Origin: Spirochaetia bacterium
GTDB taxonomy: Bacteria > Spirochaetota > Spirochaetia > UBA9216
Direction of reading: 5' to 3'
DNA length: 64,000 bases
Assembly: GCA_963675665.1 (NCBI GenBank)
Contig: OY776510.1
Coordinates: 4,480,001-4,544,000 of the forward strand
Below are positions 1,030 to 38,178 of this stretch, in pieces. Below the pieces are notes generated by a model that made no database searches, was not told where the DNA came from, and saw only the letters and a list, made by a program, of their open reading frames with translations. The first letter of the stretch is position 1. Every line of letters begins with the position of its first letter. A program made the position numbers and the translations under genes.

Positions 1030-1054
1030 AGACCGTACGGCGGAGCCAAGGTCT
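1030..1054 (+). repeat. Trailer hairpin of scaffold-type cassette (C28)
   Basis: AGACCGTACGGCGGAGCCAAGGTCT, 20 nt from attC GTT. Confidence 0.9.
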
Positions 1055-1104
1055 GATTTCTTTTGATATTTATATTTTATAGCCAAGCTTCAAGTTCATT
1101 TTAT

Positions 1105-2478
1105 TCAATTTTCACACTGATTTATAAACTTTTCAACATATTTATAAATACTCTCATATTTTCTTGACTCACTATCCTCTGATAAAAATATTTTAAATTC
1201 TTCTCTTGCTAAATTAAAATCTTCATGCTTGTAAAAGAATAACAAGCCTAAACAATAATGCAATTGATATTTCTCAGGCTCCTCATCTAATATCCCATAT
1301 ATAAATTTTTCACATTGTATATGTACATTATTAGCAGCTCTATTTCTAAAACCTAATTTATAAAAATTATAAGCTTTATCTAACTTCTCTTCATAAGCAA
1401 ATAAAAATGCTTTACTATATGCCCATGTATAATCGCCGGTTGCTCTCTTCTTTGCTTCAAATAATCTTTCATGTGCAACTTTTAAATTTCTTTCATGAAA
1501 ATAAAAAATTGCACTAAGGGTACACATATCATAGCTCAAAGGACATAATTTTTCAGCTTCATGTACTTTTTCACCTATTTTCTCCCAATTACATTCCCCC
1601 AAATATTCATTTATTGCAAAGAAGTGTATTTCCGCCATTAGAAATTCTTTATTATTTTTCTGTATACGTTCAAAATTGGTTTTTAATATTTCAGTATCAC
1701 TTTCAATTTTGATTTGATTACATTTCTTATGCAATTTATATGCTATATCAATAAATCCATTATATGCACATGCTAATCCCAAAATATACAATGAGCCATA
1801 AGAAAATATAAGTGAATTCAGGCTGAAGCCAGTAAGTTCTTGATCATATGAAATCATTGAATTGCGAGGAAATACTGAATACATATCTTGAATAATATTA
1901 TTTTTCCTATCCAACGGTATAGTTTTATGAGAAATAGACTCATTAAATTCAATTACGTAATGCTCCTTACCATTTTGAATTCTATTCCTTGCAACACCAT
2001 ATAAAATAAATTTTGCTTTACTCTTATCATGATATTTCTTTGCTAACAATTTATTATCATTAATTTTCTCAGAATGATATTCAGACAATGTAATCACTTT
2101 AATTTTCTTATCTACACTTTTTATACTTCTTTCAATTTCATCAAAAAAATCTTTTTTAATTTTCTCTCTAACCTTATCATTATCTGTTCTAATCGCAAAC
2201 AAAACTCCAATATCATTTTTTCTAAATTTTGGGATTCTCCTTAAATAAAGCCATATAAAAATGAGAAATATATCTACTATACAAAAAACAATAATATTAT
2301 TTATTATTAAATTCTTATTCGTTGATAATACTTCCAAAGCTGGTATATTATAATCATCAATGGATCCATACAATTTGATTATCCAACTTATAAATAATAA
2401 GAATTGAACCCCTGTAATTGAAATTTTCCTTTCAAGGAGTAGTTTCATTCTGCGCAATGTATCATAACTATCTAACAT
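1105..2478 (-). CDS. Membrane-anchored TPR-like protein (C28; near-identical copy of C20)
   Basis: Two N-terminal hydrophobic helices, C-terminal TPR-like pattern (LHYCLGLLFFY...AREEFKIFL). Confidence 0.75.
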   Translation of the reverse strand: MLDSYDTLRRMKLLLERKISITGVQFLLFISWIIKLYGSIDDYNIPALEVLSTNKNLIINNIIVFCIVDIFLIFIWLYLRRIPKFRKNDIGVLFAIRTDNDKVREKIKKDFFDEIERSIKSVDKKIKVITLSEYHSEKINDNKLLAKKYHDKSKAKFILYGVARNRIQNGKEHYVIEFNESISHKTIPLDRKNNIIQDMYSVFPRNSMISYDQELTGFSLNSLIFSYGSLYILGLACAYNGFIDIAYKLHKKCNQIKIESDTEILKTNFERIQKNNKEFLMAEIHFFAINEYLGECNWEKIGEKVHEAEKLCPLSYDMCTLSAIFYFHERNLKVAHERLFEAKKRATGDYTWAYSKAFLFAYEEKLDKAYNFYKLGFRNRAANNVHIQCEKFIYGILDEEPEKYQLHYCLGLLFFYKHEDFNLAREEFKIFLSEDSESRKYESIYKYVEKFINQCEN

Positions 2479-2517
2479 TTTATAATCTCCGATTTTATTC
2501 TTAATAATTCTATCATC

Positions 2518-2540
2518 GCCCGTCGGCCGGAGGTCCGGGC
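2518..2540 (+). repeat. Leader hairpin (C28)
   Basis: Exact 23-nt core. Confidence 0.9.
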
Positions 2541-2611
2541 GATTTCTCTTACTTATTTTACACCCAGAACTCGAAAACGGCTAACAATTTCATCGAAACA
2601 TCCCTAAGTGC

Positions 2612-2751
2612 ATTTAACGACGTTTTGAGCTGCCTGGCGGCCGCAGTCTTCTGCGGCATTGGCGTGATTCTGGAGTGGAGCGCGATCAGCGCGAAACGTC
2701 TCCGCCAGAATCATGACAATAGCCAGGACTGCTCCAAAACTTTTGTTATAT
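2612..2751 (-). repeat. attC site (C27)
   Basis: ATTTAAC...GTTATAT family repeat. Confidence 0.92.
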
Positions 2752-3073
2752 TTTTGTCTTTCATAATAAGTTTTCAATATCATCAAGTGATAATTTCTCA
2801 TATTCAATATCATATCCTGGATATTTCATTATTAAATTCTTTGCTTTTTCTTTTAGTTTATCCAATTTTATCTTATCTTTATTCATCTTTACTTCTACAA
2901 TTATCAATTTCTTTTCAATTTCATCTAATGCGACTATATCTATTTCATTCTTATTACCTTTTTCCCAATATGTACCAATTAATCCAAGATTCGGATTATC
3001 TTTTTTTATCTCAATAAATAATTTTTCTAATATTGGTCCAGAATATGTACTTAAATCTTTTTCTATAATTTTC

Positions 3074-4348
3074 CATAGCTGTCCAAAATAAGGACTATTA
3101 ATAGCCTGAATCCCTGGTTATAATGAATTGAGCGGGCAAGCTTAAATCATTACAACGGAAGGAAAACAGGCAATGAGTTATAAGAATAGCATTTTAAATC
3201 AGATACTTCAAATCATTCCGAGACATGAATTTGAAAGATCTGTCAGAAAGTATAAAGGAGATTTTGCTTCAAAAGGATTCTCCTGTTGGGAACAATTTGT
3301 TTCAATGCTGTTTGCCCAATTTACAGGACAGACCGGACTTAGAGGCATAGAAACAGCATTGGATTCGATTAAAAACATGCTTTATCATTTGGGGGTAAAA
3401 AAGATTAAACGCTCAACACTTTCCTATGCAAATAACAACAGACCCTCAGAAATTTATGAAAATGTATTCAATAACCTGCTGACAAAGATCCTTAAAATGA
3501 AAAGGTCTCATAAGCATAGATTTAAAAATCCGCTGTACAGTGTTGATGCGACAACCATCGATTTATGCCTGTCAGTATTTCCATGGGCGAAGTTTAGAAA
3601 GAATAAAGGCGGAATCAAACTTAATGTAAAACTTGATCACAGCGGATATATTCCGGACTTTGTATCTGTTACAACAGCTCAAACCCATGAGCTTAATTCA
3701 CTCAAGAAAATGAAATTCAATAAAGGTGATGTAGTTGCATTCGATCGGGCCTATACAGATTTCAAATTATTTGCAAGTTATTGTATTGCAGGCATTTATT
3801 TTATTACTCGTATGAAAAAGAATGCAGATTATAAAGTTTTTCAAAGAAATAATGTTTCAAAATATGAAAATATTTCATCAGATCAAATAATTGAAATGCG
3901 AGGATACTACACCAGCAAGAAGTGTCCACTCCAATTACGGCGAATTAGAATAAAAGATCCGGAAACAGGAAAATATATTGTAATTCTTACAAATCAGCTT
4001 GATTGGGCACCTACAACAGTTGCTGCTGTCTATAAGGACAGATGGCAGATAGAAATATTCTTCAAAACAATCAAACAGAACCTGAAAATAAAGAAGTTTT
4101 TTGGAACGACGAAAAATGCAGTAATGACTCAGATCTGGATAGCATTGATAACTCATCTGATGCTGCAATATCTGAAGATGTTATCTTCCGGTGGATGGAC
4201 TCATTATTCGCTTATGAAATTGCTTCCATCAATCCTGACGACCAGAAAAGATCTCTGGAATATTCTGAATAAACTACCGCCGCCCGGCAGAAATGAGCCA
4301 GGCTTAAAACTTCAAATGGAGCTGTTATGATTGTTTTGGACAGCTATG
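3074..4348 (+). mobile_element. IS4-family insertion sequence, copy 1 (1275 bp)
   Basis: IRs CATAGCTGTCCAAAA / TTTTGGACAGCTATG; 9-bp TSD ATAATTTTC. Confidence 0.95.
3173..4330 (+). CDS. IS4-family DDE transposase
   Basis: VDATTI, FDRAY, YKDRWQIEIFFK (YREK) motifs. Confidence 0.95.
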   Translation: MSYKNSILNQILQIIPRHEFERSVRKYKGDFASKGFSCWEQFVSMLFAQFTGQTGLRGIETALDSIKNMLYHLGVKKIKRSTLSYANNNRPSEIYENVFNNLLTKILKMKRSHKHRFKNPLYSVDATTIDLCLSVFPWAKFRKNKGGIKLNVKLDHSGYIPDFVSVTTAQTHELNSLKKMKFNKGDVVAFDRAYTDFKLFASYCIAGIYFITRMKKNADYKVFQRNNVSKYENISSDQIIEMRGYYTSKKCPLQLRRIRIKDPETGKYIVILTNQLDWAPTTVAAVYKDRWQIEIFFKTIKQNLKIKKFFGTTKNAVMTQIWIALITHLMLQYLKMLSSGGWTHYSLMKLLPSILTTRKDLWNILNKLPPPGRNEPGLKLQMELL

Positions 4349-5398
4349 ATAATTTTCTTTATTAATTCATATCGTTCATCCTCTATTAGCCTTATATTTT
4401 TATAAATATATCTAAACCAGAATTTTATAAAATTATCCTTTATTCCATATTTTTGACTTTTTCCATTTTTTTTACTTCCAACTGGTTTTATTTTTTCAAT
4501 TACATCATATTCTACTTCTAACTTTTCTAAATACCCGCCTATACTTTTTTCTAATATGGATTCTATTTCACTTCGAGAAGTACGCCCAACTGAAATCATC
4601 TCCAATATTGAAAAATATATTCCATAATCCTTTCCAAATTCTTGAATTAATAAATTCTTTCCTTCTCCTATAAAAAAAGAGTCCTTTTCCAATATCAAAT
4701 CAAGTATTTTATCAAAGCTATAACATTTTTCTTTTACCAATATTTCTTGGTATCTTGGCACTCCACCTGTTATTAAATAATTATAAAAAAGATTTTCTTT
4801 GCTGTAAGCATTATTATCAATTAATATTTCTTTTATAACTTTCACTTCAAAAGGTTTTATATATAAAATTCTATCTGCCCTTCCATATAAAGGTTCTTTT
4901 GAATTTTGAAAGATTCGTATCATCATTGAGTATATCGAACCTATAAATATTACATAGACTTTTGTCTCAAATTTATATTTATCCCATAAATTTTGTATTT
5001 CAGAATAAATACTCGAATTTATATTATTAAACTCCTGAAACTCATCTATTATTAATACATAAGGATTGTCTTTTCCAAATTTCAATAATTGCTCGAATAA
5101 CTTTGTGAAACTCTTTACTTCTCCAATTATTTCCTGACCAGTAAATTTTTCATATTCTTCTTTCAATTCTTCACACAATAACGGTTCAGCTTTTTTACTT
5201 GTAAAGAAATATAGGTGCTTTTTATCTTTGGCAAATTCTTTTGATAACAGTGTTTTCCCTACACGACGTCTACCTGTTAAAACAGTTATTGCTCCGTATG
5301 ATTCTTCACATTTTGAGTATATATCGTTTAATATTGTTAATTCTTTATAACGGTCATAAAATCTCATAGCAACCTCCGTTACTGTAACAGCTATTGCT

Positions 5399-5428: not shown

Positions 5429-5431
5429 TAA

Positions 5432-5567
5432 ATATAACGACGATTTGAGTAGCAAAATTGATCGGCGTCTTCGCCGAATTGGCGCGATTCTGGAACGAGC
5501 GATCAGCGAGTGTCTTTAGCCAGAATCGTGACAATAAATTTTGACTACTCCAAATCTTTTGTTATAT
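5432..5567 (-). repeat. attC site (C26)
   Basis: ATATAAC...GTTATAT family repeat. Confidence 0.92.
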
Positions 5568-5580
5568 GCCATATTTTATC

Positions 5581-5605
5581 AGACCGTACGGCGGAGCCAA
5601 GGTCT
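5581..5605 (+). repeat. Trailer hairpin (C26)
   Basis: AGACCGTACGGCGGAGCCAAGGTCT. Confidence 0.9.
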
Positions 5606-5618: not shown

Positions 5619-6740
5619 TTACGATCTACTTAGATCTTTGAAATGTATTTCTACAACTTTTGAATAATTACCATAAGTTCTTATCAATTTCTTAGTTTTG
5701 ATAAATAATTCCTCATCTCTTAATTTATTTCTTAATAATTCTACATACTCTGATTTAATCATATTCGCATTTATATAAAATCTTAATAAATCTTCTATCT
5801 CTTTATTATTATTTATTCCTTGATCATTTTTAATTTCATCTTCATTTTCTTTTGCTTTATCTTCTATAATTTCTTGTTCTTCAATTTTTTCATTACTTTC
5901 AGATAATGGAGAATTAGTGTCCGAACTTTCTATATCATTCTTTAATTGCTCTCCGAAAAAAGAATATACAACTCCTGAAAATGTACCATAAGTTCTTATC
6001 AATTTAATAGCATGTTCATAATTATTTCTTTTCATCAGATTTTTATATAAATTGTTCATCTCAAAATCATTTATATTTCTGGAATTAATATAATGCTCAG
6101 TAATTGACTTTATTTTTTCAAATTTTTCTTGCTCAGTATGTTCATCTTTTATTATTGGTTTTTCAGGTAATATGTTTATGGCCACTTTTTTCGGGCCATT
6201 ATATTTCCATCTATTCTTTAAATAAATTCCGTTTATCAGCCACAAAACTGGATTAAATGAAATTATCGTCGCAATCAAGAATGCATATTTATTATATTTA
6301 AGAATTTGAATCATTAATACATTTATAATAATCATGTATATTATTCCAAAAACTGGATATTCAATTGCTGTAAATATTAAAATTATATTTCCTAAAGTTA
6401 AATTTAGCCAACCCCAGAATTTCCACCATTCATATCCCCAATCGTTATTATCATTTAAATTATTCTCTTTTTTTTCACAACTACTTTTTTTATCATTTTT
6501 TCCCTTTGCGTTATTGATTATATTGCCTACAACATTATCTTTGTGCTCCACTTTAATGGGAAGATTTTCTATACTTTTATTATTTTCTTTTATTTTATCA
6601 ACTTTTAAATTAATGTATTTATACTTGGCCTTTACTTCATCTCCTTCAGAGAGAACTATTGCTTTTGCCCATAATGCTTCATCAACATCACCACTTTCAA
6701 ATTCTTTTGTGATATTCAAAAATATAACTTCATCATCCAT
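5619..6740 (-). CDS. Hypothetical membrane protein with duplicated C-terminal module (C26)
   Basis: Central hydrophobic helices; YIN...KLIRTYG..S.VV occurs twice. Confidence 0.75.
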   Translation of the reverse strand: MDDEVIFLNITKEFESGDVDEALWAKAIVLSEGDEVKAKYKYINLKVDKIKENNKSIENLPIKVEHKDNVVGNIINNAKGKNDKKSSCEKKENNLNDNNDWGYEWWKFWGWLNLTLGNIILIFTAIEYPVFGIIYMIIINVLMIQILKYNKYAFLIATIISFNPVLWLINGIYLKNRWKYNGPKKVAINILPEKPIIKDEHTEQEKFEKIKSITEHYINSRNINDFEMNNLYKNLMKRNNYEHAIKLIRTYGTFSGVVYSFFGEQLKNDIESSDTNSPLSESNEKIEEQEIIEDKAKENEDEIKNDQGINNNKEIEDLLRFYINANMIKSEYVELLRNKLRDEELFIKTKKLIRTYGNYSKVVEIHFKDLSRS

Positions 6741-6814: not shown

Positions 6815-6837
6815 GCCCGTCGGCCGGAGGTCCGGGC
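6815..6837 (+). repeat. Leader hairpin (C26)
   Basis: Exact 23-nt core. Confidence 0.9.
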
Positions 6838-6906: not shown

Positions 6907-7052
6907 ATATAACGACAATTTGAGCTGCGCCCTCGCTCCTGGAGCGAAGCGGAAGGAATTGGCGTGATTCTGGAGTGTAGCGCGATCAGCGCGGAACGTC
7001 TCTGCCAGAATCATGACAATAGACGGCGACTGCTCCAAATTTTTTGTTAAAT
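6907..7052 (-). repeat. attC site (C25)
   Basis: ATATAAC...GTTAAAT family repeat. Confidence 0.92.
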
Positions 7053-7064: not shown

Positions 7065-7089
7065 AGACCGCACGACGGAGTCAAGGTCT
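7065..7089 (+). repeat. Trailer hairpin (C25)
   Basis: AGACCGCACGACGGAGTCAAGGTCT. Confidence 0.9.
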
Positions 7090-8240: not shown

Positions 8241-9240
8241 ATATTATTCCGCATAACATTCACAATTTTTCATTATCCATTTAGAACCGGTGAAACAGTT
8301 AATTTTTTTAACGCTTTTTCATAGAATCCAAAATCAGAATCTGAATATATAGTCTGTAAACCTTTAACTAATTCTAAATCATTCTTTTGTTCATATTCAA
8401 GAAGACCTTTATGTATAACTGTCCTATATAGTTTACATGATAAAGGAGACGTCATATATATTTTTTTAACCAAAGTACTACAAAACTTTTCTGAATCTAT
8501 TTGTTTTTTTGCAGGGAAAACTACATTTATTGTCTTATTAGGATCAATATTATTAACATTTACTCTTGTTGAAGAAAATATTATTCCATCAATATTACTA
8601 TTTCTTTGCACATGTTGCATTAATATTTGTGGGATAATATATTCTGGTTTAAAAGGCATCTGCCTTTCTTTTACTTTAATTTGACATGATGCAATAATAG
8701 GCCAAAGAATTAAATAACTATTTATTGTTTTAATTAATGTCTTAATTGTAATCCTTTCATCAAATTCTTCTTCCGGAAATTTATTCAAATATGATAATAG
8801 TATTTTATTTGTAACTGATATATTGAGCAAATTTACAGTATTATCTTCTGCTAATTCGAATTTAGAAATATGTATCTCATCAAATGATGGACGATCCATT
8901 TCCTCCCAACAGATGTAAGATGACGTTCCTAAATATAAAGCAGGATTTCCTGGTATACTAAAACGGTATGAATTTATGATTCTTCGCTTATTGTAAGGTA
9001 CATGAAATAAGTCTCCCATTTCTAACGATGGCAAGTCTGAAAGTCTTATTCTATATAATTCTTTGTATGGCATTAATTCTTTATCACGTTCAAGTAATTT
9101 AAAGCTATCAAGTACTGGATCTATTTTTTTCATAAGATAATTGAAACTATTATAAGAGGCGATTACATTTCCTTCTAAATAATGAGAAATAACCAATAAG
9201 ATTTTCTCTTCGACTTTTTTAATCATTTGATAATCATTTT

Positions 9241-10515
9241 CATAGCTGTCCAAAATAAGGACTATTAATAGCCTGAATCCCTGGTTATAATGAATTGAGC
9301 GGGCAAGCTTAAATCATTACAACGGAAGGAAAACAGGCAATGAGTTATAAGAATAGCATTTTAAATCAGATACTTCAAATCATTCCGAGACATGAATTTG
9401 AAAGATCTGTCAGAAAGTATAAAGGAGATTTTGCTTCAAAAGGATTCTCCTGTTGGGAACAATTTGTTTCAATGCTGTTTGCCCAATTTACAGGACAGAC
9501 CGGACTTAGAGGCATAGAAACAGCATTGGATTCGATTAAAAACATGCTTTATCATTTGGGGGTAAAAAAGATTAAACGCTCAACACTTTCCTATGCAAAT
9601 AACAACAGACCCTCAGAAATTTATGAAAATGTATTCAATAACCTGCTGACAAAGATCCTTAAAATGAAAAGGTCTCATAAGCATAGATTTAAAAATCCGC
9701 TGTACAGTGTTGATGCGACAACCATCGATTTATGCCTGTCAGTATTTCCATGGGCGAAGTTTAGAAAGAATAAAGGCGGAATCAAACTTAATGTAAAACT
9801 TGATCACAGCGGATATATTCCGGACTTTGTATCTGTTACAACAGCTCAAACCCATGAGCTTAATTCACTCAAGAAAATGAAATTCAATAAAGGTGATGTA
9901 GTTGCATTCGATCGGGCCTATACAGATTTCAAATTATTTGCAAGTTATTGTATTGCAGGCATTTATTTTATTACTCGTATGAAAAAGAATGCAGATTATA
10001 AAGTTTTTCAAAGAAATAATGTTTCAAAATATGAAAATATTTCATCAGATCAAATAATTGAAATGCGAGGATACTACACCAGCAAGAAGTGTCCACTCCA
10101 ATTACGGCGAATTAGAATAAAAGATCCGGAAACAGGAAAATATATTGTAATTCTTACAAATCAGCTTGATTGGGCACCTACAACAGTTGCTGCTGTCTAT
10201 AAGGACAGATGGCAGATAGAAATATTCTTCAAAACAATCAAACAGAACCTGAAAATAAAGAAGTTTTTTGGAACGACGAAAAATGCAGTAATGACTCAGA
10301 TCTGGATAGCATTGATAACTCATCTGATGCTGCAATATCTGAAGATGTTATCTTCCGGTGGATGGACTCATTATTCGCTTATGAAATTGCTTCCATCAAT
10401 CCTGACGACCAGAAAAGATCTCTGGAATATTCTGAATAAACTACCGCCGCCCGGCAGAAATGAGCCAGGCTTAAAACTTCAAATGGAGCTGTTATGATTG
10501 TTTTGGACAGCTATG
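9241..10515 (+). mobile_element. IS4-family insertion sequence, copy 2
   Basis: Same IRs; 9-bp TSD AATCATTTT. Confidence 0.95.
9340..10497 (+). CDS. IS4-family DDE transposase
   Basis: Identical protein to 3173-4330. Confidence 0.95.
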   Translation: MSYKNSILNQILQIIPRHEFERSVRKYKGDFASKGFSCWEQFVSMLFAQFTGQTGLRGIETALDSIKNMLYHLGVKKIKRSTLSYANNNRPSEIYENVFNNLLTKILKMKRSHKHRFKNPLYSVDATTIDLCLSVFPWAKFRKNKGGIKLNVKLDHSGYIPDFVSVTTAQTHELNSLKKMKFNKGDVVAFDRAYTDFKLFASYCIAGIYFITRMKKNADYKVFQRNNVSKYENISSDQIIEMRGYYTSKKCPLQLRRIRIKDPETGKYIVILTNQLDWAPTTVAAVYKDRWQIEIFFKTIKQNLKIKKFFGTTKNAVMTQIWIALITHLMLQYLKMLSSGGWTHYSLMKLLPSILTTRKDLWNILNKLPPPGRNEPGLKLQMELL

Positions 10516-10717
10516 AATCATTTTTATTTATTGTTATATGAGGGTTTTTATCAATAATGCCTTCAACAAATCTATTATATTTTTTAAAAACATGCTTTAA
10601 CCCTGTTGAAATATTTTCTGATGTAAGAACTATTGGAAATCCTATAATCTCATTTGAAAGTATCTCTTTTAATGTTTTCATACTAAACACCTTTTAGATT
10701 TTATGCTTTATTCTTTC

Positions 10718-10740
10718 GCCCGTCGGCCGGAGGTCCGGGC
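10718..10740 (+). repeat. Leader hairpin (C25)
   Basis: Exact 23-nt core. Confidence 0.9.
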
Positions 10741-10812: not shown

Positions 10813-10950
10813 ATTTAACGACGATTTGAGTAGCAAAATCGGCCGAGTCTTCGAGGCTTGGCGCAGTTCTGGAACGTAGCGCGATCAGCGCGGAGTGTCT
10901 CTGCCAGAACTGTGACAAAGATTTTGACTACTCCAAATCTCTTGTTATAT
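10813..10950 (-). repeat. attC site (C24)
   Basis: ATTTAAC...GTTATAT family repeat. Confidence 0.92.
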
Positions 10951-10963: not shown

Positions 10964-10988
10964 AGACCGTACGGCGGAGCCAGGGCTG
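10964..10988 (+). repeat. Trailer hairpin (C24)
   Basis: AGACCGTACGGCGGAGCCAGGGCT variant. Confidence 0.85.
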
Positions 10989-12109: not shown

Positions 12110-12132
12110 GCCCGTCGGCCGGAGGTCCGGGC
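12110..12132 (+). repeat. Leader hairpin (C24)
   Basis: Exact 23-nt core; flanks covary (ACA..TGT). Confidence 0.9.
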
Positions 12133-12204: not shown

Positions 12205-12350
12205 ATATAACGACAAAATCAGTTGCGCCCTCGATCCTGAGCCGCAGGCGAAGGAATTGGCGTGATTCTGGAACGTAGCGCGATCAGCGCGGAGTGTCTC
12301 CGCCAGAATCATGACAATAGACGGCGACAACTGCATTTTTTTTGTTATAC
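12205..12350 (-). repeat. attC site (C23)
   Basis: ATATAAC...GTTATAC family repeat. Confidence 0.92.
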
Positions 12351-14460: not shown

Positions 14461-14485
14461 AGACCGCACGGCGGAGTCAAGGTCT
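14461..14485 (+). repeat. Trailer hairpin (C21)
   Basis: AGACCGCACGGCGGAGTCAAGGTCT. Confidence 0.9.
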
Positions 14486-15808: not shown

Positions 15809-15831
15809 GCCCGTCGGCCGGAGGTCCGGGC
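15809..15831 (+). repeat. Leader hairpin (C21)
   Basis: Exact 23-nt core. Confidence 0.9.
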
Positions 15832-15906
15832 TATTTCTATTCTTAATCATTTTAACCCCAATCTCAAAAACTGACTAACAAAATTATTGGACTAATTATG
15901 GCGTGC

Positions 15907-16044
15907 ATTTAACGACCAAATCAGTTGCAAAATCGGCCGAGTCTTCGAGGCTTGGCGCAGTTCTGGAGTGAAGCGCGATCAGCGCTGAACGTCTCCGCCA
16001 GAACTGTGACAAAGATTTTGACAACTGCATTTGTCATGTTAAAT
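15907..16044 (-). repeat. attC site (C20)
   Basis: Identical to 879-1016. Confidence 0.92.
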
Positions 16045-16057
16045 GCCTTTTCTTATC

Positions 16058-16082
16058 AGACCGTACGGCGGAGCCAAGGTCT
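16058..16082 (+). repeat. Trailer hairpin (C20)
   Basis: AGACCGTACGGCGGAGCCAAGGTCT. Confidence 0.9.
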
Positions 16083-16132
16083 GATTTCTTTTGATATTTA
16101 TATTTTATAGCCAAGCTTCAAGTTCATTTTAT

Positions 16133-17506: not shown

Positions 17507-17545
17507 TTTATAATCTCCGATTTTATTCTTAATAATTCTATCATC

Positions 17546-17568
17546 GCCCGTCGGCCGGAGGTCCGGGC
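17546..17568 (+). repeat. Leader hairpin (C20)
   Basis: Exact 23-nt core. Confidence 0.9.
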
Positions 17569-17639: not shown

Positions 17640-17778
17640 ATTTAACGACGATTTGAGTAGCAAAATCGGCCGAGTCTTCGAGGCTTGGCGCAGTTCTGGA
17701 ACGCAGCGCGATCAGCGCGGAGTGTCTTTAGCCAGAACTGTGACAAAGATTTTGGCTACTCCAAATCTTTTGTTATAC
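17640..17778 (-). repeat. attC site (C19)
   Basis: ATTTAAC...GTTATAC family repeat. Confidence 0.92.
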
Positions 17779-24787: not shown

Positions 24788-24812
24788 AGACCGCACGACG
24801 GAGTCAAGGTCT
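24788..24812 (+). repeat. Trailer hairpin (C13)
   Basis: AGACCGCACGACGGAGTCAAGGTCT. Confidence 0.9.
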
Positions 24813-25374
24813 GGTTTTCTTAAATATTATTAATAATTGAAACTTTGATTATCTAATTCTTGAGTTTTAATATATCCACCATAGACCCATCCATTAATAT
24901 TTTCTTTTCTAATATTTACCCATGGAAAATCCATATTATCCAATTTATATGATATTGGTGTAACTCCCAACATTTCAATTTCTTCATTCTCTTGCAATAA
25001 TCCAAGAATATCTGAATCAGTACTAGGTAGTTTTCTAATTCTAAGGTTTTTTGTATTACAATATCCTTTATAAGGTTTTTGATATTGATAATCAATATTA
25101 CGTGCTCCCATACTATCCATAACTCTTACAAATTCCGAATTTTCTCCATGCAACTTGATTGCAATAGCCAATGGGGACATATAATCATTAAGTAAATTAA
25201 CTGTTGTTATTTTTGCTTTATTTTCAATTAAGATTTTAAAAGCTTTAATATTGTTTTTCTTTATAGCAAATACTAATGGATTTTCAAAAGATACTTGTAT
25301 ATCAAAGTTATTTACATTAAATCCATATTTTATACACAAATCAGTATAGAGATCATTTTTTATTCTTATTGACT

Positions 25375-26649
25375 CATAGCTGTCCAAAATAAGGACTATT
25401 AATAGCCTGAATCCCTGGTTATAATGAATTGAGCGGGCAAGCTTAAATCATTACAACGGAAGGAAAACAGGCAATGAGTTATAAGAATAGCATTTTAAAT
25501 CAGATACTTCAAATCATTCCGAGACATGAATTTGAAAGATCTGTCAGAAAGTATAAAGGAGATTTTGCTTCAAAAGGATTCTCCTGTTGGGAACAATTTG
25601 TTTCAATGCTGTTTGCCCAATTTACAGGACAGACCGGACTTAGAGGCATAGAAACAGCATTGGATTCGATTAAAAACATGCTTTATCATTTGGGGGTAAA
25701 AAAGATTAAACGCTCAACACTTTCCTATGCAAATAACAACAGACCCTCAGAAATTTATGAAAATGTATTCAATAACCTGCTGACAAAGATCCTTAAAATG
25801 AAAAGGTCTCATAAGCATAGATTTAAAAATCCGCTGTACAGTGTTGATGCGACAACCATCGATTTATGCCTGTCAGTATTTCCATGGGCGAAGTTTAGAA
25901 AGAATAAAGGCGGAATCAAACTTAATGTAAAACTTGATCACAGCGGATATATTCCGGACTTTGTATCTGTTACAACAGCTCAAACCCATGAGCTTAATTC
26001 ACTCAAGAAAATGAAATTCAATAAAGGTGATGTAGTTGCATTCGATCGGGCCTATACAGATTTCAAATTATTTGCAAGTTATTGTATTGCAGGCATTTAT
26101 TTTATTACTCGTATGAAAAAGAATGCAGATTATAAAGTTTTTCAAAGAAATAATGTTTCAAAATATGAAAATATTTCATCAGATCAAATAATTGAAATGC
26201 GAGGATACTACACCAGCAAGAAGTGTCCACTCCAATTACGGCGAATTAGAATAAAAGATCCGGAAACAGGAAAATATATTGTAATTCTTACAAATCAGCT
26301 TGATTGGGCACCTACAACAGTTGCTGCTGTCTATAAGGACAGATGGCAGATAGAAATATTCTTCAAAACAATCAAACAGAACCTGAAAATAAAGAAGTTT
26401 TTTGGAACGACGAAAAATGCAGTAATGACTCAGATCTGGATAGCATTGATAACTCATCTGATGCTGCAATATCTGAAGATGTTATCTTCCGGTGGATGGA
26501 CTCATTATTCGCTTATGAAATTGCTTCCATCAATCCTGACGACCAGAAAAGATCTCTGGAATATTCTGAATAAACTACCGCCGCCCGGCAGAAATGAGCC
26601 AGGCTTAAAACTTCAAATGGAGCTGTTATGATTGTTTTGGACAGCTATG
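25375..26649 (+). mobile_element. IS4-family insertion sequence, copy 3
   Basis: Same IRs; 9-bp TSD TTATTGACT. Confidence 0.95.
25474..26631 (+). CDS. IS4-family DDE transposase
   Basis: Identical protein to other copies. Confidence 0.95.
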   Translation: MSYKNSILNQILQIIPRHEFERSVRKYKGDFASKGFSCWEQFVSMLFAQFTGQTGLRGIETALDSIKNMLYHLGVKKIKRSTLSYANNNRPSEIYENVFNNLLTKILKMKRSHKHRFKNPLYSVDATTIDLCLSVFPWAKFRKNKGGIKLNVKLDHSGYIPDFVSVTTAQTHELNSLKKMKFNKGDVVAFDRAYTDFKLFASYCIAGIYFITRMKKNADYKVFQRNNVSKYENISSDQIIEMRGYYTSKKCPLQLRRIRIKDPETGKYIVILTNQLDWAPTTVAAVYKDRWQIEIFFKTIKQNLKIKKFFGTTKNAVMTQIWIALITHLMLQYLKMLSSGGWTHYSLMKLLPSILTTRKDLWNILNKLPPPGRNEPGLKLQMELL

Positions 26650-26947
26650 TTATTGACTCATAAAATAAATAATTTGCTCTATTAATTTCACCAGGCATGA
26701 TATCCAAAGGTGATGCACCTTTATCAAGTAATAAATTTACAATTTCAATATTTTTATTGCTTGCTGCTATAAATATTGGTGATATTCTATCCCAAAACCA
26801 ATATTCTTCTACCCCCTTAACATCCGCCCCATTTCCTATTAAAAATTTAATAATTTCATTACTATTATTTTCTAAAGCATATTTAAATACTTTAGAATCC
26901 ATATCTGGATTAAAATTATATTCGCCTTTATAATTATTATATAATGT

Positions 26948-28222
26948 CATAGCTGTCCAAAATAAGGACTATTAATAGCCTGAATCCCTGGTTATAATGA
27001 ATTGAGCGGGCAAGCTTAAATCATTACAACGGAAGGAAAACAGGCAATGAGTTATAAGAATAGCATTTTAAATCAGATACTTCAAATCATTCCGAGACAT
27101 GAATTTGAAAGATCTGTCAGAAAGTATAAAGGAGATTTTGCTTCAAAAGGATTCTCCTGTTGGGAACAATTTGTTTCAATGCTGTTTGCCCAATTTACAG
27201 GACAGACCGGACTTAGAGGCATAGAAACAGCATTGGATTCGATTAAAAACATGCTTTATCATTTGGGGGTAAAAAAGATTAAACGCTCAACACTTTCCTA
27301 TGCAAATAACAACAGACCCTCAGAAATTTATGAAAATGTATTCAATAACCTGCTGACAAAGATCCTTAAAATGAAAAGGTCTCATAAGCATAGATTTAAA
27401 AATCCGCTGTACAGTGTTGATGCGACAACCATCGATTTATGCCTGTCAGTATTTCCATGGGCGAAGTTTAGAAAGAATAAAGGCGGAATCAAACTTAATG
27501 TAAAACTTGATCACAGCGGATATATTCCGGACTTTGTATCTGTTACAACAGCTCAAACCCATGAGCTTAATTCACTCAAGAAAATGAAATTCAATAAAGG
27601 TGATGTAGTTGCATTCGATCGGGCCTATACAGATTTCAAATTATTTGCAAGTTATTGTATTGCAGGCATTTATTTTATTACTCGTATGAAAAAGAATGCA
27701 GATTATAAAGTTTTTCAAAGAAATAATGTTTCAAAATATGAAAATATTTCATCAGATCAAATAATTGAAATGCGAGGATACTACACCAGCAAGAAGTGTC
27801 CACTCCAATTACGGCGAATTAGAATAAAAGATCCGGAAACAGGAAAATATATTGTAATTCTTACAAATCAGCTTGATTGGGCACCTACAACAGTTGCTGC
27901 TGTCTATAAGGACAGATGGCAGATAGAAATATTCTTCAAAACAATCAAACAGAACCTGAAAATAAAGAAGTTTTTTGGAACGACGAAAAATGCAGTAATG
28001 ACTCAGATCTGGATAGCATTGATAACTCATCTGATGCTGCAATATCTGAAGATGTTATCTTCCGGTGGATGGACTCATTATTCGCTTATGAAATTGCTTC
28101 CATCAATCCTGACGACCAGAAAAGATCTCTGGAATATTCTGAATAAACTACCGCCGCCCGGCAGAAATGAGCCAGGCTTAAAACTTCAAATGGAGCTGTT
28201 ATGATTGTTTTGGACAGCTATG
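26948..28222 (+). mobile_element. IS4-family insertion sequence, copy 4
   Basis: Same IRs; 9-bp TSD ATATAATGT. Confidence 0.95.
27047..28204 (+). CDS. IS4-family DDE transposase
   Basis: Identical protein to other copies. Confidence 0.95.
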   Translation: MSYKNSILNQILQIIPRHEFERSVRKYKGDFASKGFSCWEQFVSMLFAQFTGQTGLRGIETALDSIKNMLYHLGVKKIKRSTLSYANNNRPSEIYENVFNNLLTKILKMKRSHKHRFKNPLYSVDATTIDLCLSVFPWAKFRKNKGGIKLNVKLDHSGYIPDFVSVTTAQTHELNSLKKMKFNKGDVVAFDRAYTDFKLFASYCIAGIYFITRMKKNADYKVFQRNNVSKYENISSDQIIEMRGYYTSKKCPLQLRRIRIKDPETGKYIVILTNQLDWAPTTVAAVYKDRWQIEIFFKTIKQNLKIKKFFGTTKNAVMTQIWIALITHLMLQYLKMLSSGGWTHYSLMKLLPSILTTRKDLWNILNKLPPPGRNEPGLKLQMELL

Positions 28223-28407
28223 ATATAATGTTATAAATCTTTTTAGATCATTTTGTTTTATTGCAAGATTAAACTCATCCCCATAATTTTCCATTGAAAA
28301 AATATTCATCACTTTAAATAAAAGCAATATAAAAATTATACAAAGATGTTTGTTCATAATGCTTTCTCTTCTCCAATCTTATATAAATCAACAATTATGT
28401 AATTATC

Positions 28408-28430
28408 GCCCGTCGGCCGGAGGTCCGGGC
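28408..28430 (+). repeat. Leader hairpin (C13)
   Basis: Exact 23-nt core. Confidence 0.9.
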
Positions 28431-29396: not shown

Positions 29397-29421
29397 TGGC
29401 CGAACGTCGGAGCCAAGGCCT
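29397..29421 (+). repeat. Trailer hairpin, divergent (C11)
   Basis: TGGCCGAACGTCGGAGCCAAGGCCT, 20 nt from GTT; GGCC/GGCC replaces GACC/GGTC. Confidence 0.8.
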
Positions 29422-29431: not shown

Positions 29432-30328
29432 TTATAATTTCTTCTTAGCCATTGCTCTATCTATTTCGTTTTGCATTTTTTCCTCAATTGAGGGATAATC
29501 CTTTTTCTCAATATCTCGTACAAATTCTTTATACGGAAAACCATTAATCCAATCTAATTTAGTCAGCCTGATATTTAAATCTTTACATTTCCTATACATC
29601 ATTTTAGTATATTCATTTGTAACCTGTTCACCCAAAACAATTTCTTCTATACTATTTAATATATTTAAATAATACGACATAATTTCGCTATTTTTATCAT
29701 ATATACTATATCGATATTCATGCTCAGTTGACCAGTCTGACATTTTTGTAAAAATAAATAATTCTCTATGTCCCCAAATATAATCCGTTAAAATATGCTT
29801 TTTATAACCATTCTCCTCTAACATTTTATCAATTTCATAATTATTAAAAATTGATTTCAATTTATCTTTTTTTGATTCTAAATTATAATAGACTCTTCTA
29901 TTTGCATAATTATTTTGTTTATTCTTTATTTTCTTAAACTCTTGATCTAATTTATCTTTTCGAAGAATAATGCAACATCCTTTGTGCATATCACCATATT
30001 GTTCCCACATTCTTGGTTTTTTAACTATTAATTCCATATTGTCTTCTTGTATAAAGCATAATACTTTAAACATATCTTTAAGATTATCTTTTATAATTCT
30101 TTCAGAAGTAGTTACTAAACCACCATGAGCATGACGCACCGCAATTTTAAATAGAATATTCTTATTTTCAAATGGATCATTTGTATTGCTTAAGCTACTA
30201 AATTTAAATTGCATATTTTCTAATATTAATTCAAGCTTTCTTAAATTTGTAAAATGACCCAAAAAAGTAACTTTATCACTTTTATTATTCATTAAATAAG
30301 TCCTTATTAGTTCATCTTTTATATCCAA
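29432..30328 (-). CDS. DUF2971-family protein (C11)
   Basis: HFT, NDPFE, CF, MWEQYGDMHKGCCI, K..DWSTEHEYR. Confidence 0.8.
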   Translation of the reverse strand: MDIKDELIRTYLMNNKSDKVTFLGHFTNLRKLELILENMQFKFSSLSNTNDPFENKNILFKIAVRHAHGGLVTTSERIIKDNLKDMFKVLCFIQEDNMELIVKKPRMWEQYGDMHKGCCIILRKDKLDQEFKKIKNKQNNYANRRVYYNLESKKDKLKSIFNNYEIDKMLEENGYKKHILTDYIWGHRELFIFTKMSDWSTEHEYRYSIYDKNSEIMSYYLNILNSIEEIVLGEQVTNEYTKMMYRKCKDLNIRLTKLDWINGFPYKEFVRDIEKKDYPSIEEKMQNEIDRAMAKKKL

Positions 30329-30397: not shown

Positions 30398-30420
30398 GCC
30401 CGTCGGCCGGAGGTCCGGGC
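30398..30420 (+). repeat. Leader hairpin (C11)
   Basis: Exact 23-nt core. Confidence 0.9.
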
Positions 30421-30488: not shown

Positions 30489-30628
30489 ATTTAACGACGT
30501 TTTGAGCTGCCTGGCGGCGCGTGTCTTCACGCGCATTGGCGTGATTCTGGAGTGTAGCGCGATCAGCGCGAAACGTCTCCGCCAGAATCATGACAATAGC
30601 CAGGACTGCTCCAAAACTTTTGTTATAC
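30489..30628 (-). repeat. attC site (C10)
   Basis: ATTTAAC...GTTATAC family repeat. Confidence 0.92.
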
Positions 30629-34181: not shown

Positions 34182-34310
34182 GACGATTTGAGTAGCAAAA
34201 TTGTTCGGCGTCTTCGCCGAATTGGCGCGATTCTGGAACGAGCGATCAGCGAGTGTCTTTAGCCAGAATCGTGACAATAAATTTTGACTACTCCAAATCT
34301 CTTGTTATGT
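34175..34310 (-). repeat. attC site (C6)
   Basis: ACAAAAC...GTTATGT family repeat. Confidence 0.92.
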
Positions 34311-34314
34311 ATAA

Positions 34315-35340: not shown

Positions 35341-35487
35341 TTAAATCTCTCTCCATTCTTTTTACAATAATATCTTAATAATTCCTCTTGTATAATCCGA
35401 GCTGTTCATACTGATCATTGTGTACAATTTTTTAATAGCCACATATACAGAATTTCGTAACCGTAAAAACAACCGCACCCTGAAAAA

Positions 35488-36999
35488 TCAGTTAAGATAA
35501 ATATTCCAGGGAAGAAGCTCCTGCCAATCTTCACTGGACTTCATCAACGGAGCTTCGGTAAATACTTTTCTCAGATAAACATAAGGGTTGAGATCGTTTT
35601 GCTTTGCTGTTTCAACAAGTGAATAAATCCCGCAAGAACTCTCAGCACCTTTTGGGCTGCCGGCAAACAACCAGTTTTTCCTGCCCAACACAAACGGCCT
35701 GATAGCATTTTCACAGGCATTATTATCCGGAGTCAAATAAGGTGATTCAAGATAATTTACAAGTTTGCTCCATTGCCCAATTGTATATGATATCGCTTTT
35801 CCGAGTTCAGTCGAAGGAACAACATTATGCTGCCTTTTCTCAAGCCAGGAACTGAACTTGGCCAATAGCGGTTCTGCCTTCTTTTTTCTTTCTGCAAGAA
35901 ACTCGGGTTCACTTAAGTTTTTAGCTCTGAGTTCATTCTCTATCAAATACAGTTTCTGAATATATTTCAGCCCTTCAGCAGCACTGCCAGGTTTCTTGGA
36001 TACTCTTGATGCATCAAAGAATTTCCGTCTTGCATGAGCAAAACAACCGGCATGAATTATATCTGGATAATCTTTCAACGCTGTAACATATGCTTCATAA
36101 CCGTCAGTCTGAAGATAGCCGCTGAATCCGTCCAGAAAACTGCGAATATTCTTAGAACCCCTCGTTTCATGATATTCATATAGAATTGCAACTTGCCCCG
36201 GAGGCCCCCCTCGGGCAAGCCACATATAGGAGTTTCGAGTAGCAGGCCTATCCGGTTCATTGTGAACCTGTATTCTCGTTTCATCCATCTGCATAACCGA
36301 ACCGGTTTTCAGATGTTCTTTCATCAGTTCAAGCAGGATTATAAGAGCTTCATATGCCTGTCTTTGCCAGTTGCTCATATCCTGTCGGCTTATGCTGATC
36401 CCTATTCGCTCAAATCTCTTTTCCTGCCGGTAGAAAGGCAAATGATCTACATATTTATTTACAAGCAAAAATGCAAGGAGCTCGGGTGTTACTATGCTTT
36501 TGGGAAAGATTGTGGGAGCAGTCGGGGCTATCCGCACCGCAGGTTTATCTTCATCTCCGCTGCCTTCACAAGTCTTACAGGCATATTTGGGTCTGATGGT
36601 TCTTTCTACCCACATCTGTTCCGGTACAACTTTTATTCGTTCGGATATTTCTTCGCCTATTCTAACCAGTTCTGCTCCGCAAGCGCATTTCTTCTCTTCT
36701 TCGGGTATATCAATAAGGATTTCTTCACGGGGAAGATTCTCGTTTATCTTCTTTCGACCAGGTTTCTTTTTGGTATAGGATTCTACCTTCTGAGTTTCAG
36801 ATTCTTCTTCGGGAGCAATATCCGGTTCACTATCAAAAAGTAATATCTGAGCGGCTGTGTCTTTCTCGCTGGAACGATTATATTTCTTGAACAATTCAAG
36901 CTTGAAACGCTCTTCCAGCGCCTGGTATTTCGTTGCCCATTTTCGTTCAATATCTTTGATGTATTGCTGTACTTCTTCAGGAAGCTTTTCAACATCCAT
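35488..36999 (-). CDS. tnpC: IS66 DDE transposase TnpC
   Basis: MDET, QTDGY, CFAHARRKF, DNNACENAIRP, GRKNWLF. Confidence 0.95.
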   Translation of the reverse strand: MDVEKLPEEVQQYIKDIERKWATKYQALEERFKLELFKKYNRSSEKDTAAQILLFDSEPDIAPEEESETQKVESYTKKKPGRKKINENLPREEILIDIPEEEKKCACGAELVRIGEEISERIKVVPEQMWVERTIRPKYACKTCEGSGDEDKPAVRIAPTAPTIFPKSIVTPELLAFLLVNKYVDHLPFYRQEKRFERIGISISRQDMSNWQRQAYEALIILLELMKEHLKTGSVMQMDETRIQVHNEPDRPATRNSYMWLARGGPPGQVAILYEYHETRGSKNIRSFLDGFSGYLQTDGYEAYVTALKDYPDIIHAGCFAHARRKFFDASRVSKKPGSAAEGLKYIQKLYLIENELRAKNLSEPEFLAERKKKAEPLLAKFSSWLEKRQHNVVPSTELGKAISYTIGQWSKLVNYLESPYLTPDNNACENAIRPFVLGRKNWLFAGSPKGAESSCGIYSLVETAKQNDLNPYVYLRKVFTEAPLMKSSEDWQELLPWNIYLN

Positions 37000-37043
37000 A
37001 TCTTAAGTCTAGCATTTTTTGATCCGAGGGTAAATTCCTTATA

Positions 37044-37427
37044 CTATGTTATTTCAGAATATTTTAATTCTGTATGAGCATTCCAGAAATCTATACCCTT
37101 TAGAAGCATGTCAAGCTCAGTCTGCTTCAGCTCTATTGCATCCTGATTATTTTTCGGCCATGGAAAGCGATGTTTTTCAAGTTTCTTCTGCCATAAACAA
37201 AACCCGTTTTTATCCCAATAGAGAGCTTTCAAATTCCGTCTCTCTTTATTGCAAAATAAAAATAGATTGCCTGATAGTGGATCTGATTCAAGCTCATCAG
37301 CTACTATCATAGATAAGCCATTTATTGCTTTTCTCATATCGGTACTGCCTGGTTTTATGAATATCTTTATCTTGGAGAAATCAGGAAACACTTTTCGTTT
37401 CCACCAGGTCCATCGCTGCCATTGCAT
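37044..37427 (-). CDS. tnpB: IS66 accessory protein TnpB (true start probably GTG near 37391)
   Basis: TDMRKAINGL, LFLFCN, LYWDKNGFCLWQKKLE. Confidence 0.92.
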   Translation of the reverse strand: MQWQRWTWWKRKVFPDFSKIKIFIKPGSTDMRKAINGLSMIVADELESDPLSGNLFLFCNKERRNLKALYWDKNGFCLWQKKLEKHRFPWPKNNQDAIELKQTELDMLLKGIDFWNAHTELKYSEIT

Positions 37428-37695
37428 CTTCTCTGCTGAATCCAGGCTGCAGGATTATTTTCCAACCACCGTGTTCGAGGATTATATTTTTCTTCACAGC
37501 AGGTATTTCAAGCATTGGCAATTTTACGAAACCCGGTTTTTGTGTTCTCTGTTTCTGCCGTTCTTGTTTGGTCCAGTTATAAAACGTGGTTGGCCGTATA
37601 TCATTCTCACGGCAGAACTGACCTCCGGACATCCCGGACTCACGCCATTCTGTGAGATAGTCTGCTCGCTCTTTAGCGGTATATTGCTTGTTCAT
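37381..37695 (-). CDS. tnpA: IS66 accessory protein TnpA
   Basis: WRESGMSGGQFCRE...TFYNW HTH. Confidence 0.88.
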   Translation of the reverse strand: MNKQYTAKERADYLTEWRESGMSGGQFCRENDIRPTTFYNWTKQERQKQRTQKPGFVKLPMLEIPAVKKNIILEHGGWKIILQPGFSREDAMAAMDLVETKSVS

Positions 37696-38004
37696 TATTT
37701 CCTCCAGCTTCCCGGAGTTTAATAGATTTCAGAGTTCAACATAAGGTGCGGTTGTTTTGACGGTTACAGAATTTCTCGTATTTCTATCATTTTAAGACTG
37801 TTTTCGGCCCTTGGGAACTATATTTTATAAATAATTCTATCATGCTCAACTTGATATAGACAATTGTTTCGTAATTCCTATAATTCTTTTAGGAGTATCA
37901 TCTTAATCTGGATATCATCTTTTCTCTTTTTCTTAATAAATCACAGCTGTACACTATTCTATTAGAAATTTGTTGATCAAGTTACAAGCTGTTACTCTAT
38001 TTAT

Positions 38005-38140
38005 ACATAACGACGATTTGAGTAGCAAAATTGTTCGGCGTCTTCGCCGAATTGGCGCGATTCTGGAGTGAGCGATCAGCGAATGTCTTTAGCCAGAATC
38101 GTGACAATAAATTTTGACTACTCCAAATCTCTTGTTAAAT
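38005..38140 (-). repeat. attC site (C5)
   Basis: ACATAAC...GTTAAAT family repeat. Confidence 0.92.
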
Positions 38141-38153
38141 GCCGTTTCTTACC

Positions 38154-38178
38154 AGACCGAACGACGGAGTCGAGGTCT
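38154..38178 (+). repeat. Trailer hairpin (C5)
   Basis: AGACCGAACGACGGAGTCGAGGTCT. Confidence 0.9.

Follow-up and report, generated by a model that had tools for sequence, protein, structure and literature searches.

What are the two small hairpins that recur on either side of the attC recombination sites of a spirochaete integron, and which strand is read? The question arises from a stretch of 64,000 nucleotides (nt), hereafter the window, of a Spirochaetia bacterium (assembly GCA_963675665.1, contig OY776510.1, positions 4,480,001 to 4,544,000; G000:C1:4480001-4544000 in our coordinates), whose genome has 5.15 Mb and 43% G+C. Window positions 1 to ~45000 form an A+T-rich cassette array (~30% G+C) and core genome follows. 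The integrase gene intI is divergent from the array, in which the cassette open reading frames (ORFs) lie on the minus strand. This IntI-type integrase beside an array of attC-bounded cassettes with ORFs on one strand identifies the system as an integron. Its attC sites are flanked by two G+C-rich hairpins, here called the leader and the trailer, which are real structures: conserved across lineages, covarying, strand-asymmetric and positionally coupled to attC. We tentatively propose that they may be accessory single-stranded-DNA (ssDNA) hairpins of the recombination site, a possibility that falls a little short of an even chance.

Two hairpins of one design on either side of attC

The leader (GCCCG/TC/GGCC-GGA-GGTC/CGGGC) is present as 10 exact 23-mer copies in the window, all on the plus strand, while shuffled sequences lead one to expect none. 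Eight copies match the trailer pattern, again all on the plus strand with none expected from shuffles, and a degenerate ninth stands at 10964 (Table 1). The leader fold and the covariation of three base pairs outside its core (TA/TA, TC/GA and CA/TG), both noted in a preliminary description of the locus, are present as described. The same holds for the trailer variants reported there, namely GAC-GGA-GTC (7065, 24788, 38154), GGC-GGA-GTC (14461) and an outer GGCC/GGCC stem (29397). A CGGAG core is common to all trailers found.

Leader and trailer share one architecture in two versions. It comprises an outer stem (5-11 bp), additional unpaired bases on the 5' side in the form of a 2-nt bulge or an internal loop of 3-4 nt versus 1-2 nt, a G+C inner stem of 3-5 bp and a C(GGA)G triloop. 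Aligned in a 25-position register, the leader reads C GCCC G-TC-G GCC GGA GGT C-C GGGC G and the trailer AGACC G-YA-C GGC GGA GCC A-A GGTCT; two mismatches of the trailer (G/A and C/A) are paired in the leader, and one generic finder template recovered both hairpins. Their CGGAG core has the form of a d(GNA) mini-hairpin, a GNA triloop closed by a 5' C and a 3' G. C-G-closed d(GNA) triloops are unusually stable in DNA (PMC3201870, PMC13037366). The likeness extends to the short G+C stem under C-GGA-G and to the GAA variant, which keeps the G...A ends. The stability rule allows any middle base, whereas here G is kept on unrelated stems and, as GGA, in 64 of 75 unique leaders (the rest being AGA 3, GAA 3, AGG 2, and AAA, TGA and GGG 1 each). 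This points to sequence recognition and not to stability alone.

About 29 attC junctions were recognized in window positions 1-46000 (34 motif matches, five of which are double matches on one site), and attC length in this array is ~135 nt. Folded as DNA, the plus strand of attC begins ...TTTAAC and carries unpaired extra bases on the opposite 3' arm. Extrahelical bases opposite the AAC triplet are a mark of the attC bottom strand according to Nivina et al. 2016 (PMC5027507), and by this criterion the plus strand is the bottom strand, which bears out the earlier assignment. The GC-GAA-GC or GCC-GCA-GGC elements ascribed to some attC side arms were also found, as GCGAAGC (6944, 14339) and GCCGCAGGC (12241, 21242, 23680).

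The hairpins keep their position relative to attC and not relative to start codons. The R'' box is followed by the trailer after 15-50 nt on its 3' side. The leader precedes the R' box by 25-75 nt on the 5' side, within the opening bases of the following cassette, so that in an excised circular cassette both hairpins would flank its own attC. Across attC, leader and trailer are 251-255 nt apart in the window; in a second genome, G061, 43 of 46 junctions show a spacing of 223-269 nt. The leader-attC spacer is conserved per class at about 30, 45 or 75 nt. By comparison, the distance from the leader to the first start codon (taken to the first ORF of at least 60 amino acids, aa) ranges from 24 to 382 nt in nine cassettes of the window array and from 6 to 923 nt in 125 cassettes of G061. 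Variable start-codon distance together with fixed attC spacing argues against an anti-Shine-Dalgarno role and for membership in an attC-centred module. Pairing of the leader loop with the ribosome-binding site of the cargo gene, an alternative raised in the preliminary description, is weakened by this lack of a fixed short spacing. We dropped it as a candidate; the trailer, for its part, comes after the stop codon. In the scanned stretch, which takes in 10 kb to the left of the window, 10 leaders and 10 trailers follow each other in strict alternation, and thus every leader-bearing cassette there also bears a trailer.

Distribution and covariation across genomes and metagenomes

The host genome contains 15 leaders and 16 trailers, all inside three array regions, one with the hairpins on the minus strand (3.517-3.527 Mb) and two with them on the plus strand (3.896-3.923 and 4.480-4.520 Mb). 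Within the family, the leader was found in 7 of 11 genomes (53 copies in three genera, 43 of them identical) and the trailer in 4 of 11 (20 copies). A single 300-kb array of G061 contains 146 leaders and 46 trailers. Each of the 46 cassettes with a trailer also bears a leader, and in 44 of them the longest open frame runs on the opposite strand. A scan of one genome per species with the leader pattern returned at least 149 loci. Among the 149 matches listed, 94 lie in DNA of at least 55% G+C and were taken as chance, and 55 lie in A+T-rich DNA. The A+T-rich matches listed beyond Spirochaetia metagenome-assembled genomes (MAGs) carry the record titles Treponemataceae (2), Omnitrophota, Ignavibacteriales, Melioribacteraceae, Dehalococcoidia, Clostridiaceae and Bacteroidales; these phylum labels are those of MAG records, in which the binning of short contigs may be wrong, though the attC types differ. 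In every such other-phylum record listed, an attC box follows the hairpin on the same strand at a distance of 25-75 nt. What the hosts share, the cassettes themselves aside, is the integron recombination system.

The Treponemataceae-labelled genome G066 carries the same module with other stems: its leader is GCCCG AC GGCC GGA GGCC CGGGC and its trailer ATCTCCGCGCC GAA CGCCC GGA GGGCG A GGCGCGGAGAT. A metagenome scan with the inner part of this trailer gave at least 135 loci, with 127 unique sequences among the matches listed. A GTTAGGC or GTTAGGT box precedes 80 of these 127 by 35-51 nt, and GTTGGAT precedes one more; the open frames beyond the trailers are on the opposite strand in 105 versus 19 of the 127. 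In at least 38 metagenomic loci the trailer is also preceded by a leader, 230-299 nt away on the same strand. A structure-only search (5+2+4+3+4+5) found a hairpin in 36 of the 87 listed regions with enough upstream sequence; these 36 leaders represent 10 unique forms, all with a GGA loop, one form being dubious. Hairpins flanking attC were not described in the literature searched, including the available part of PMC3607928, a search whose reach left out most subscription journals. Apart from two chance-level snoRNA matches (E 0.2 and 0.62), no Rfam family, DUF1874 included, matched window positions 1-46000 at E up to 1.

Covariation on larger alignments, which the preliminary description had put forward as a check, exceeds shuffled controls in both sets examined: A1, with 75 unique leaders, and A2, with 127 unique metagenomic trailers, in which the fixed part of the search pattern cannot vary. 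In A1, 88.4% of cells are paired versus at most 51.7% with slid partners, 7 pairs are changed on both sides versus 2.9 after shuffling, and the covariation score is 0.143 versus 0.091. A2 has 181 cells changed on both sides versus 59 +/- 10 and a score of 0.209 versus 0.099. For both measures in both alignments 0 of 500 shuffles were as high, counts that are not probabilities because the copies are related. The A1 pair at columns 17-25 takes four forms (G.U 55, G.C 13, A.U 6, C.G 1). The hairpin fold is clearly under selection, and the covariation argues against a double-stranded operator and against mere descent.

These results bear on the possibility that the hairpins have no role of their own in recombination or expression. 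They could be the ends of a lineage-specific repeat unit (trailer-attC-spacer-leader, ~250-300 nt) that is kept by descent, gene conversion or the cassette-forming process and joined to genes at cassette making, or they could be palindromic double-stranded binding sites. Homology among cassettes does end ~10 nt or less from each hairpin on the ORF side, unrelated ORFs are found between identical flanks, and the identity of the 23-mer in 43 of 53 copies from three genera suggests recent spread or conversion. However, compensatory changes keep the pairing as the sequence varies, which indicates selection on the fold and not on a half-site or plain descent, and the GGA loop is kept across groups with unrelated stems. 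The host genome has no Y1/HUH transposase, and its six reverse-transcriptase copies lie outside the arrays. We regard this reading as very unlikely.

IS200/IS605 and REP/RAYT systems have subterminal imperfect hairpins on one strand that bracket a variable segment and are read as ssDNA. The leader and trailer are similar in being two like, imperfect hairpins on one strand around a variable segment, but they occur only beside attC. IS200/REP-type mobilisation was rejected, PF01797 (Y1) having no match in the host genome, which is 96% complete, and so was group II intron targeting, none of the six reverse-transcriptase copies being in the three array regions. The six genes (G000:C1 826976, 960669, 1091983, 3285602, 4209589 and 4877892) all score 144.1 bits and are probably one retroelement in six copies.

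Hairpins were also seen outside ordinary junctions. At L207 2250-2490 (G066:C3, ~813.3 kb), where the DNA is non-coding, rich in G+C and apart from the main array, three leader-like hairpins stand in tandem within 200 nt; each is nested in a longer inverted repeat, and one has a full compensatory change (GTCCG...CGGAC). Isolated trailers in G063 (L349 at ~598.2 kb and L350 at ~3577.7 kb of G063:C1) adjoin single attC-like ends and are followed by a pair of small ORFs (110+92 aa and 104+94 aa), and these loci look like solitary toxin-antitoxin-type cassettes.

Which strand is read, and as which molecule

Strand bias among wobble pairs was another check proposed at the outset, and the spirochaete hairpins show it. 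Counted on the GGA strand, the nine core pairs of the 75 unique leaders are Watson-Crick (WC) in 605 cases, G.T in 65, A.C in 1 and other in 4; setting aside the consensus G.T pair leaves 585, 10, 1 and 4, respectively. In 34 unique spirochaete trailers, collected with acceptance rules symmetric for G.T and A.C, there are 218 WC, 15 G.T, 1 A.C and 4 other pairs, and a G.T at the middle inner pair is found on at least five different outer stems. All conserved unpaired hairpin bases on the GGA strand are purines (GGA or GAA in the loops; GAA, GGA or A in the internal loops).

The attC sites of the arrays serve as an internal control for a known ssDNA structure. In 53 unique sites, 132 of 2511 pairs are G:T on the GGA strand versus 42 of 2379 on the other (2.49 versus 0.79 per site), and the GGA strand is the more stable in 48 versus 5. 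A further 59 metagenomic attC sites have 162 versus 50 G:T, a comparison that is biased in that the R' box was picked by the GGA-strand fold. Published attC bottom strands (PMC5027507) have G:T at 1.24 versus 0.39, a figure of 2.12 kcal/mol and purine-enriched unpaired parts, with a conserved 5'-GAA-3' terminal loop in most mobile-integron sites. The array attC sites reproduce this bottom-strand signature.

The hairpins resemble attC, as described in that paper, in lying on the same strand with its G:T excess (65:1 in leaders and 15:1 in trailers of the spirochaete copies), in purine-only unpaired features, in the GNA triloop (GAA in attC, GGA here), in the layout of stem, asymmetric spacer, stem and loop, and in the conservation of structure over sequence. 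They differ in size (30-45 nt versus 57-141) and in having neither RYYYAAC/GTTRRRY boxes nor a conserved AAC/GTT, so no cleavage site; their stems are GCCCG/CGGGC, AGACC/GGTCT or free. Their place is external to the R boxes, and one of them stands past the crossover point, in the cassette that follows. Their extra bases are on the 5' arm (bulge TC; loop 4 versus 2) and not on the 3' arm opposite AAC.

Replication gives a second view of the strand. The cumulative GC skew of the host genome has its minimum at 0.84 Mb and its maximum, the presumed terminus, at 3.54 Mb, with the cassette arrays (3.517-3.527, 3.896-3.923 and 4.470-4.525 Mb) to either side of this maximum; GGA is on the minus strand in the array before the maximum and on the plus strand in the two arrays after it. 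Assuming the usual G excess of leading strands, the GGA (attC bottom) strand would be the leading-strand template in all three arrays, which is the orientation reported for chromosomal integrons. It is also the template strand of the cassette genes. The C-to-T bias usually linked to replication and transcription should give A.C, not G.T, on the GGA strand, so that the observed wobble bias looks selected.

Taken as ssDNA and antisense RNA together, the bottom-strand sequence is probably the one that is read. That DNA and not RNA is what folds is our inference, as is any effect on recombination; ssDNA is more economical than antisense RNA because of the attC-like signature, the position that follows attC and the travel of the hairpins with integrons across hosts. 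As ssDNA, the hairpins would fold upon unwinding of the bottom strand, under the same conditions as attC. One possibility is that they confine or insulate the single-stranded region, and ORF sequence, SSB and RecA would then be kept off the attC fold. Another is that they are bound by a protein reading the GGA loop and the purine internal loop.

Several observations weigh against a role as ssDNA. Each hairpin is present at only ~10 of ~29 attC junctions in the window, about a third, and is therefore not essential. With extra bases on the 5' arm, the hairpins could not be bound by IntI as attC is. The wobble bias disappears in metagenomic trailers, whose outer stems (685 cells) have 673 WC, 6 G.T and 6 A.C, and metagenomic leaders show one G.T versus one A.C in nine of the ten forms, the dubious tenth adding one each. 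A C/A juxtaposition by the inner stem in 33 of the 34 unique spirochaete trailers becomes G.U on the mRNA strand, so that the trailer is not one-sidedly a bottom-strand fold; this constant C/A, and likewise the consensus G.T of the leader, may be a single inherited event. The preliminary description had expected the G.T pairs to become A.C mismatches in mRNA, which holds for the wobbles of leader and trailer but not for the trailer C/A.

Fold energies add to these objections. With DNA parameters, in tables that hold no GNA-loop bonus, the GGA and other strands give -7.7 and -7.7 kcal/mol for the leader and -7.8 and -7.6 kcal/mol for the trailer, and nearest-neighbour strand differences are 0-0.5 kcal/mol. 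RNA parameters give -16.1 and -13.2 kcal/mol for the leader and -14.7 and -15.8 kcal/mol for the trailer, differences of opposite sign, with the mRNA strand of the trailer equally or slightly more stable. As a leading-strand template, the bottom strand would be expected to be seldom single-stranded. Finally, antisense RNA would show the same G.T bias and purine loops. A comparable case is the DUF1874 motif, also a structured motif that recurs in consecutive intergenic regions, which is a suspected ssDNA site in Weinberg et al. 2017 (PMC5737381); according to these authors, sequence analysis cannot distinguish ssDNA from RNA motifs. Our data likewise do not separate bottom-strand ssDNA from antisense RNA of the same sequence. 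The earlier claim of ssDNA structures read on the attC strand thus keeps the spirochaete wobble bias and the attC-like features on its side, and has the metagenomic 6:6, the equal energies and the C/A against it.

The same C/A and the RNA energy of the trailer lend some weight to the sense mRNA of the minus strand. The hairpins would then be stem-loops in the 5' and 3' untranslated parts of cassette transcripts, with a UCC loop (within CCUCC in the leader), and could guard the message against exonucleases, set where it is processed or keep the large attC RNA fold away from the coding sequence. On the transcribed unit they stand at both ends of the ORF, the trailer fold gains its G.U and its slightly better energy on the mRNA strand, and the metagenomic group, having no wobble bias, supplies no argument against it. 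On the other hand, the consensus leader would have an A.C mismatch in the middle of its inner stem in 55 of 75 unique copies, ten further leader wobbles favor the plus strand versus one, as do 15 versus 1 in trailers, and the leader RNA fold loses its inner stem and 2.9 kcal/mol on the mRNA strand. The start-codon distances speak against an anti-Shine-Dalgarno role, no U-run follows either hairpin, the sequence there being A-rich, and a TATAAT-like block downstream of the leader in many G061 cassettes means that the leader may lie outside its own transcript. We consider a sense-mRNA function unlikely.

The G061 block (GAAGAAAATAGAATCTGCTGTATAATATAC...TTATACA..., loci L180-L194) lies after many leaders on the sense strand; a perfect TATAAT and an inverted repeat are both part of it. 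Common to many unrelated cassettes, it may be a promoter, with operator, that the cassettes carry with them. In the window, a sigma-70-like promoter candidate (TAAAAT block) was noted by eye in the long leader spacer and is absent from the short-spacer class.

If the plus-strand sequence acted as antisense RNA, the hairpins could be terminators or insulators against antisense transcription from insertion sequences (IS) or reversed cassettes, or GGA-loop protein sites, for example for CsrA. The wobble and purine-loop evidence is identical to that for ssDNA, RNA folds reach -14.5 to -18.5 kcal/mol, and IS copies transcribed on the plus strand lie inside the array. Like intrinsic terminators, the spirochaete hairpins are G+C-rich and followed by T-rich sequence on the plus strand, e.g. 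TTTCTTTT and TTTCCTCTT. But T-richness is near-equal around the leader (0.47-0.53 upstream, 0.49-0.60 downstream), copies from other phyla have no T-run, the hairpins have near-invariant loop and bulge positions that a plain terminator does not need, and their orientation is antisense, the sense strand being A-rich after them. A consensus terminator and promoter scan did not list the hairpins and gave promoter-like sites at chance level. A plus-strand terminator as a general function was dropped, T being ~0.5 on both sides and other lineages having no T-run. There is also no conserved plus-strand promoter before the hairpins, the sequence 5' of the leader being variable ORF. A CsrA/RsmA site is a GGA loop in the regulated mRNA, commonly over the ribosome-binding site, whereas here GGA belongs to a closed triloop whose strand is antisense to the cassette ORFs that such a regulator would control. 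CsrA is encoded in the genome, and the CsrA-type site suggested earlier is left where it stood, neither strengthened nor removed. Overall, antisense RNA appears quite unlikely.

Features of the array and a larger recombination site

Coordinates are collected in Table 1. The 339-aa intI ORF by itself spans the whole integron-integrase profile; a 75-aa ORF (45041-45268) lies just upstream in the same frame, with a TAG between them. Four IS copies are inserted in array cassettes (3073-4400, 9240-10560, 25374-26700, 26947-28270), each with a DUF4372 + DDE_Tnp_1 transposase (385 aa, plus strand); their identity was established for the 300 nt given for each repeat family. An IS66-family element (transposase 35488-36999) is a 40% G+C island in the array. 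One whole cassette, with a 457-aa ORF, leader, trailer and attC, is duplicated 15 kb apart (875-2540 and 15903-17568), with 100% identity over the 300 nt compared. The hairpin-bearing cassette with ORF 38212-40452 (minus strand) encodes a 746-aa protein with Mrr_cat and nSTAND3 domains, which looks like a defence gene; several other hairpin-bearing cassettes had no Pfam match.

Table 1. Hairpins, attC sites and integrase gene in the window (positions in window coordinates)
Feature	Position	Strand	Basis and remarks
Leader	784-806	+	Exact 23-mer, DNA/RNA folds; 5' end of cassette with ORF 184-759, then attC 880-1015 and trailer 1030
Leader, cassette with ORF 1105-2478	2518-2540	+	Exact 23-mer
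Leader, cassette with ORF 5619-6740	6815-6837	+	Exact 23-mer
Leader, cassette split by IS copy at ~9240	10718-10740	+	Exact 23-mer
Leader, outer flanks CA/TG	12110-12132	+	Exact 23-mer
Leader, cassette with ORF 14523-15773	15809-15831	+	Exact 23-mer
Leader, duplicated cassette (ORF 16133-17506)	17546-17568	+	Exact 23-mer
Leader, cassette with two IS copies	28408-28430	+	Exact 23-mer
Leader, cassette with ORF 29432-30328	30398-30420	+	Exact 23-mer
Leader, nSTAND3/Mrr_cat cassette (ORF 38212-40452)	40484-40506	+	Exact 23-mer
Trailer AGACC GTAC GGC GGA GCC AA GGTCT	1030-1054	+	Pattern match, folds; 20 nt 3' of attC GTT box
Trailer	5581-5605	+	Pattern match
Trailer, inner stem GAC/GTC (compensatory)	7065-7089	+	Pattern match
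Degenerate trailer	10964-10988	+	3' loop one base shorter, A/G mismatch in outer stem
Trailer, inner stem GGC/GTC (G.T on + strand)	14461-14485	+	Pattern match
Trailer of duplicated cassette	16058-16082	+	Pattern match
Trailer, GAC/GTC	24788-24812	+	Pattern match
Trailer, outer stem GGCC/GGCC, inner T/C mismatch	29397-29421	+	Pattern match
Trailer, four-pair inner stem CGAC/GTCG	38154-38178	+	Pattern match, folds
attC between leader and trailer	880-1015	+ (bottom strand)	DNA folds; G:T bias
Other attC sites of ~135-nt family, first five	2613-2750, 5433-5566, 6908-7051, 10814-10949, 12206-12349	+	DNA folds
Other attC sites of ~135-nt family, rest	15908-16043, 17641-17777, 30490-30627, 40577-40713	+	DNA folds
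intI, integron integrase gene	45299-46318	+	TIGR02249 392.5 bits (cut-off 265, profile positions 4-315 of 315) and Pfam

Accessory elements of a recombination site have a precedent in attI1, whose accessory integrase-binding sites are direct repeats beside the core site. The hairpins are similar in being additions next to a core site through which the reaction would be modulated; they differ in being folded elements at attC, with putative IntI binding, instead of double-stranded repeats at attI. A bolder and distinctly improbable extension is that trailer, attC and leader make up a tripartite recombination site, a module of ~250-300 nt that would be the functional and evolutionary unit of the cassette in these lineages. 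Both attC-like mini-hairpins would then be extra bottom-strand binding or folding elements for IntI or for a partner protein reading GGA, and the ends of the module would mark where genes join the site as new cassettes form.

Integron recombination is currently understood as the action of IntI on the folded attC bottom strand alone. Hairpins of this design occur in hundreds of cassettes whose records are labelled as several bacterial phyla, and they suggest that sequence outside the R boxes can belong to the recombination site, where the hairpins may have roles in folding, protection from SSB or protein binding. If they fold on the attC strand, they would add an undescribed part to the integron. 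The finding touches two open questions, namely how large chromosomal arrays control attC folding and how cassettes with uniform ends but unrelated genes originate. If true, a tripartite site would be a first sequence-level handle on how cassettes arise.

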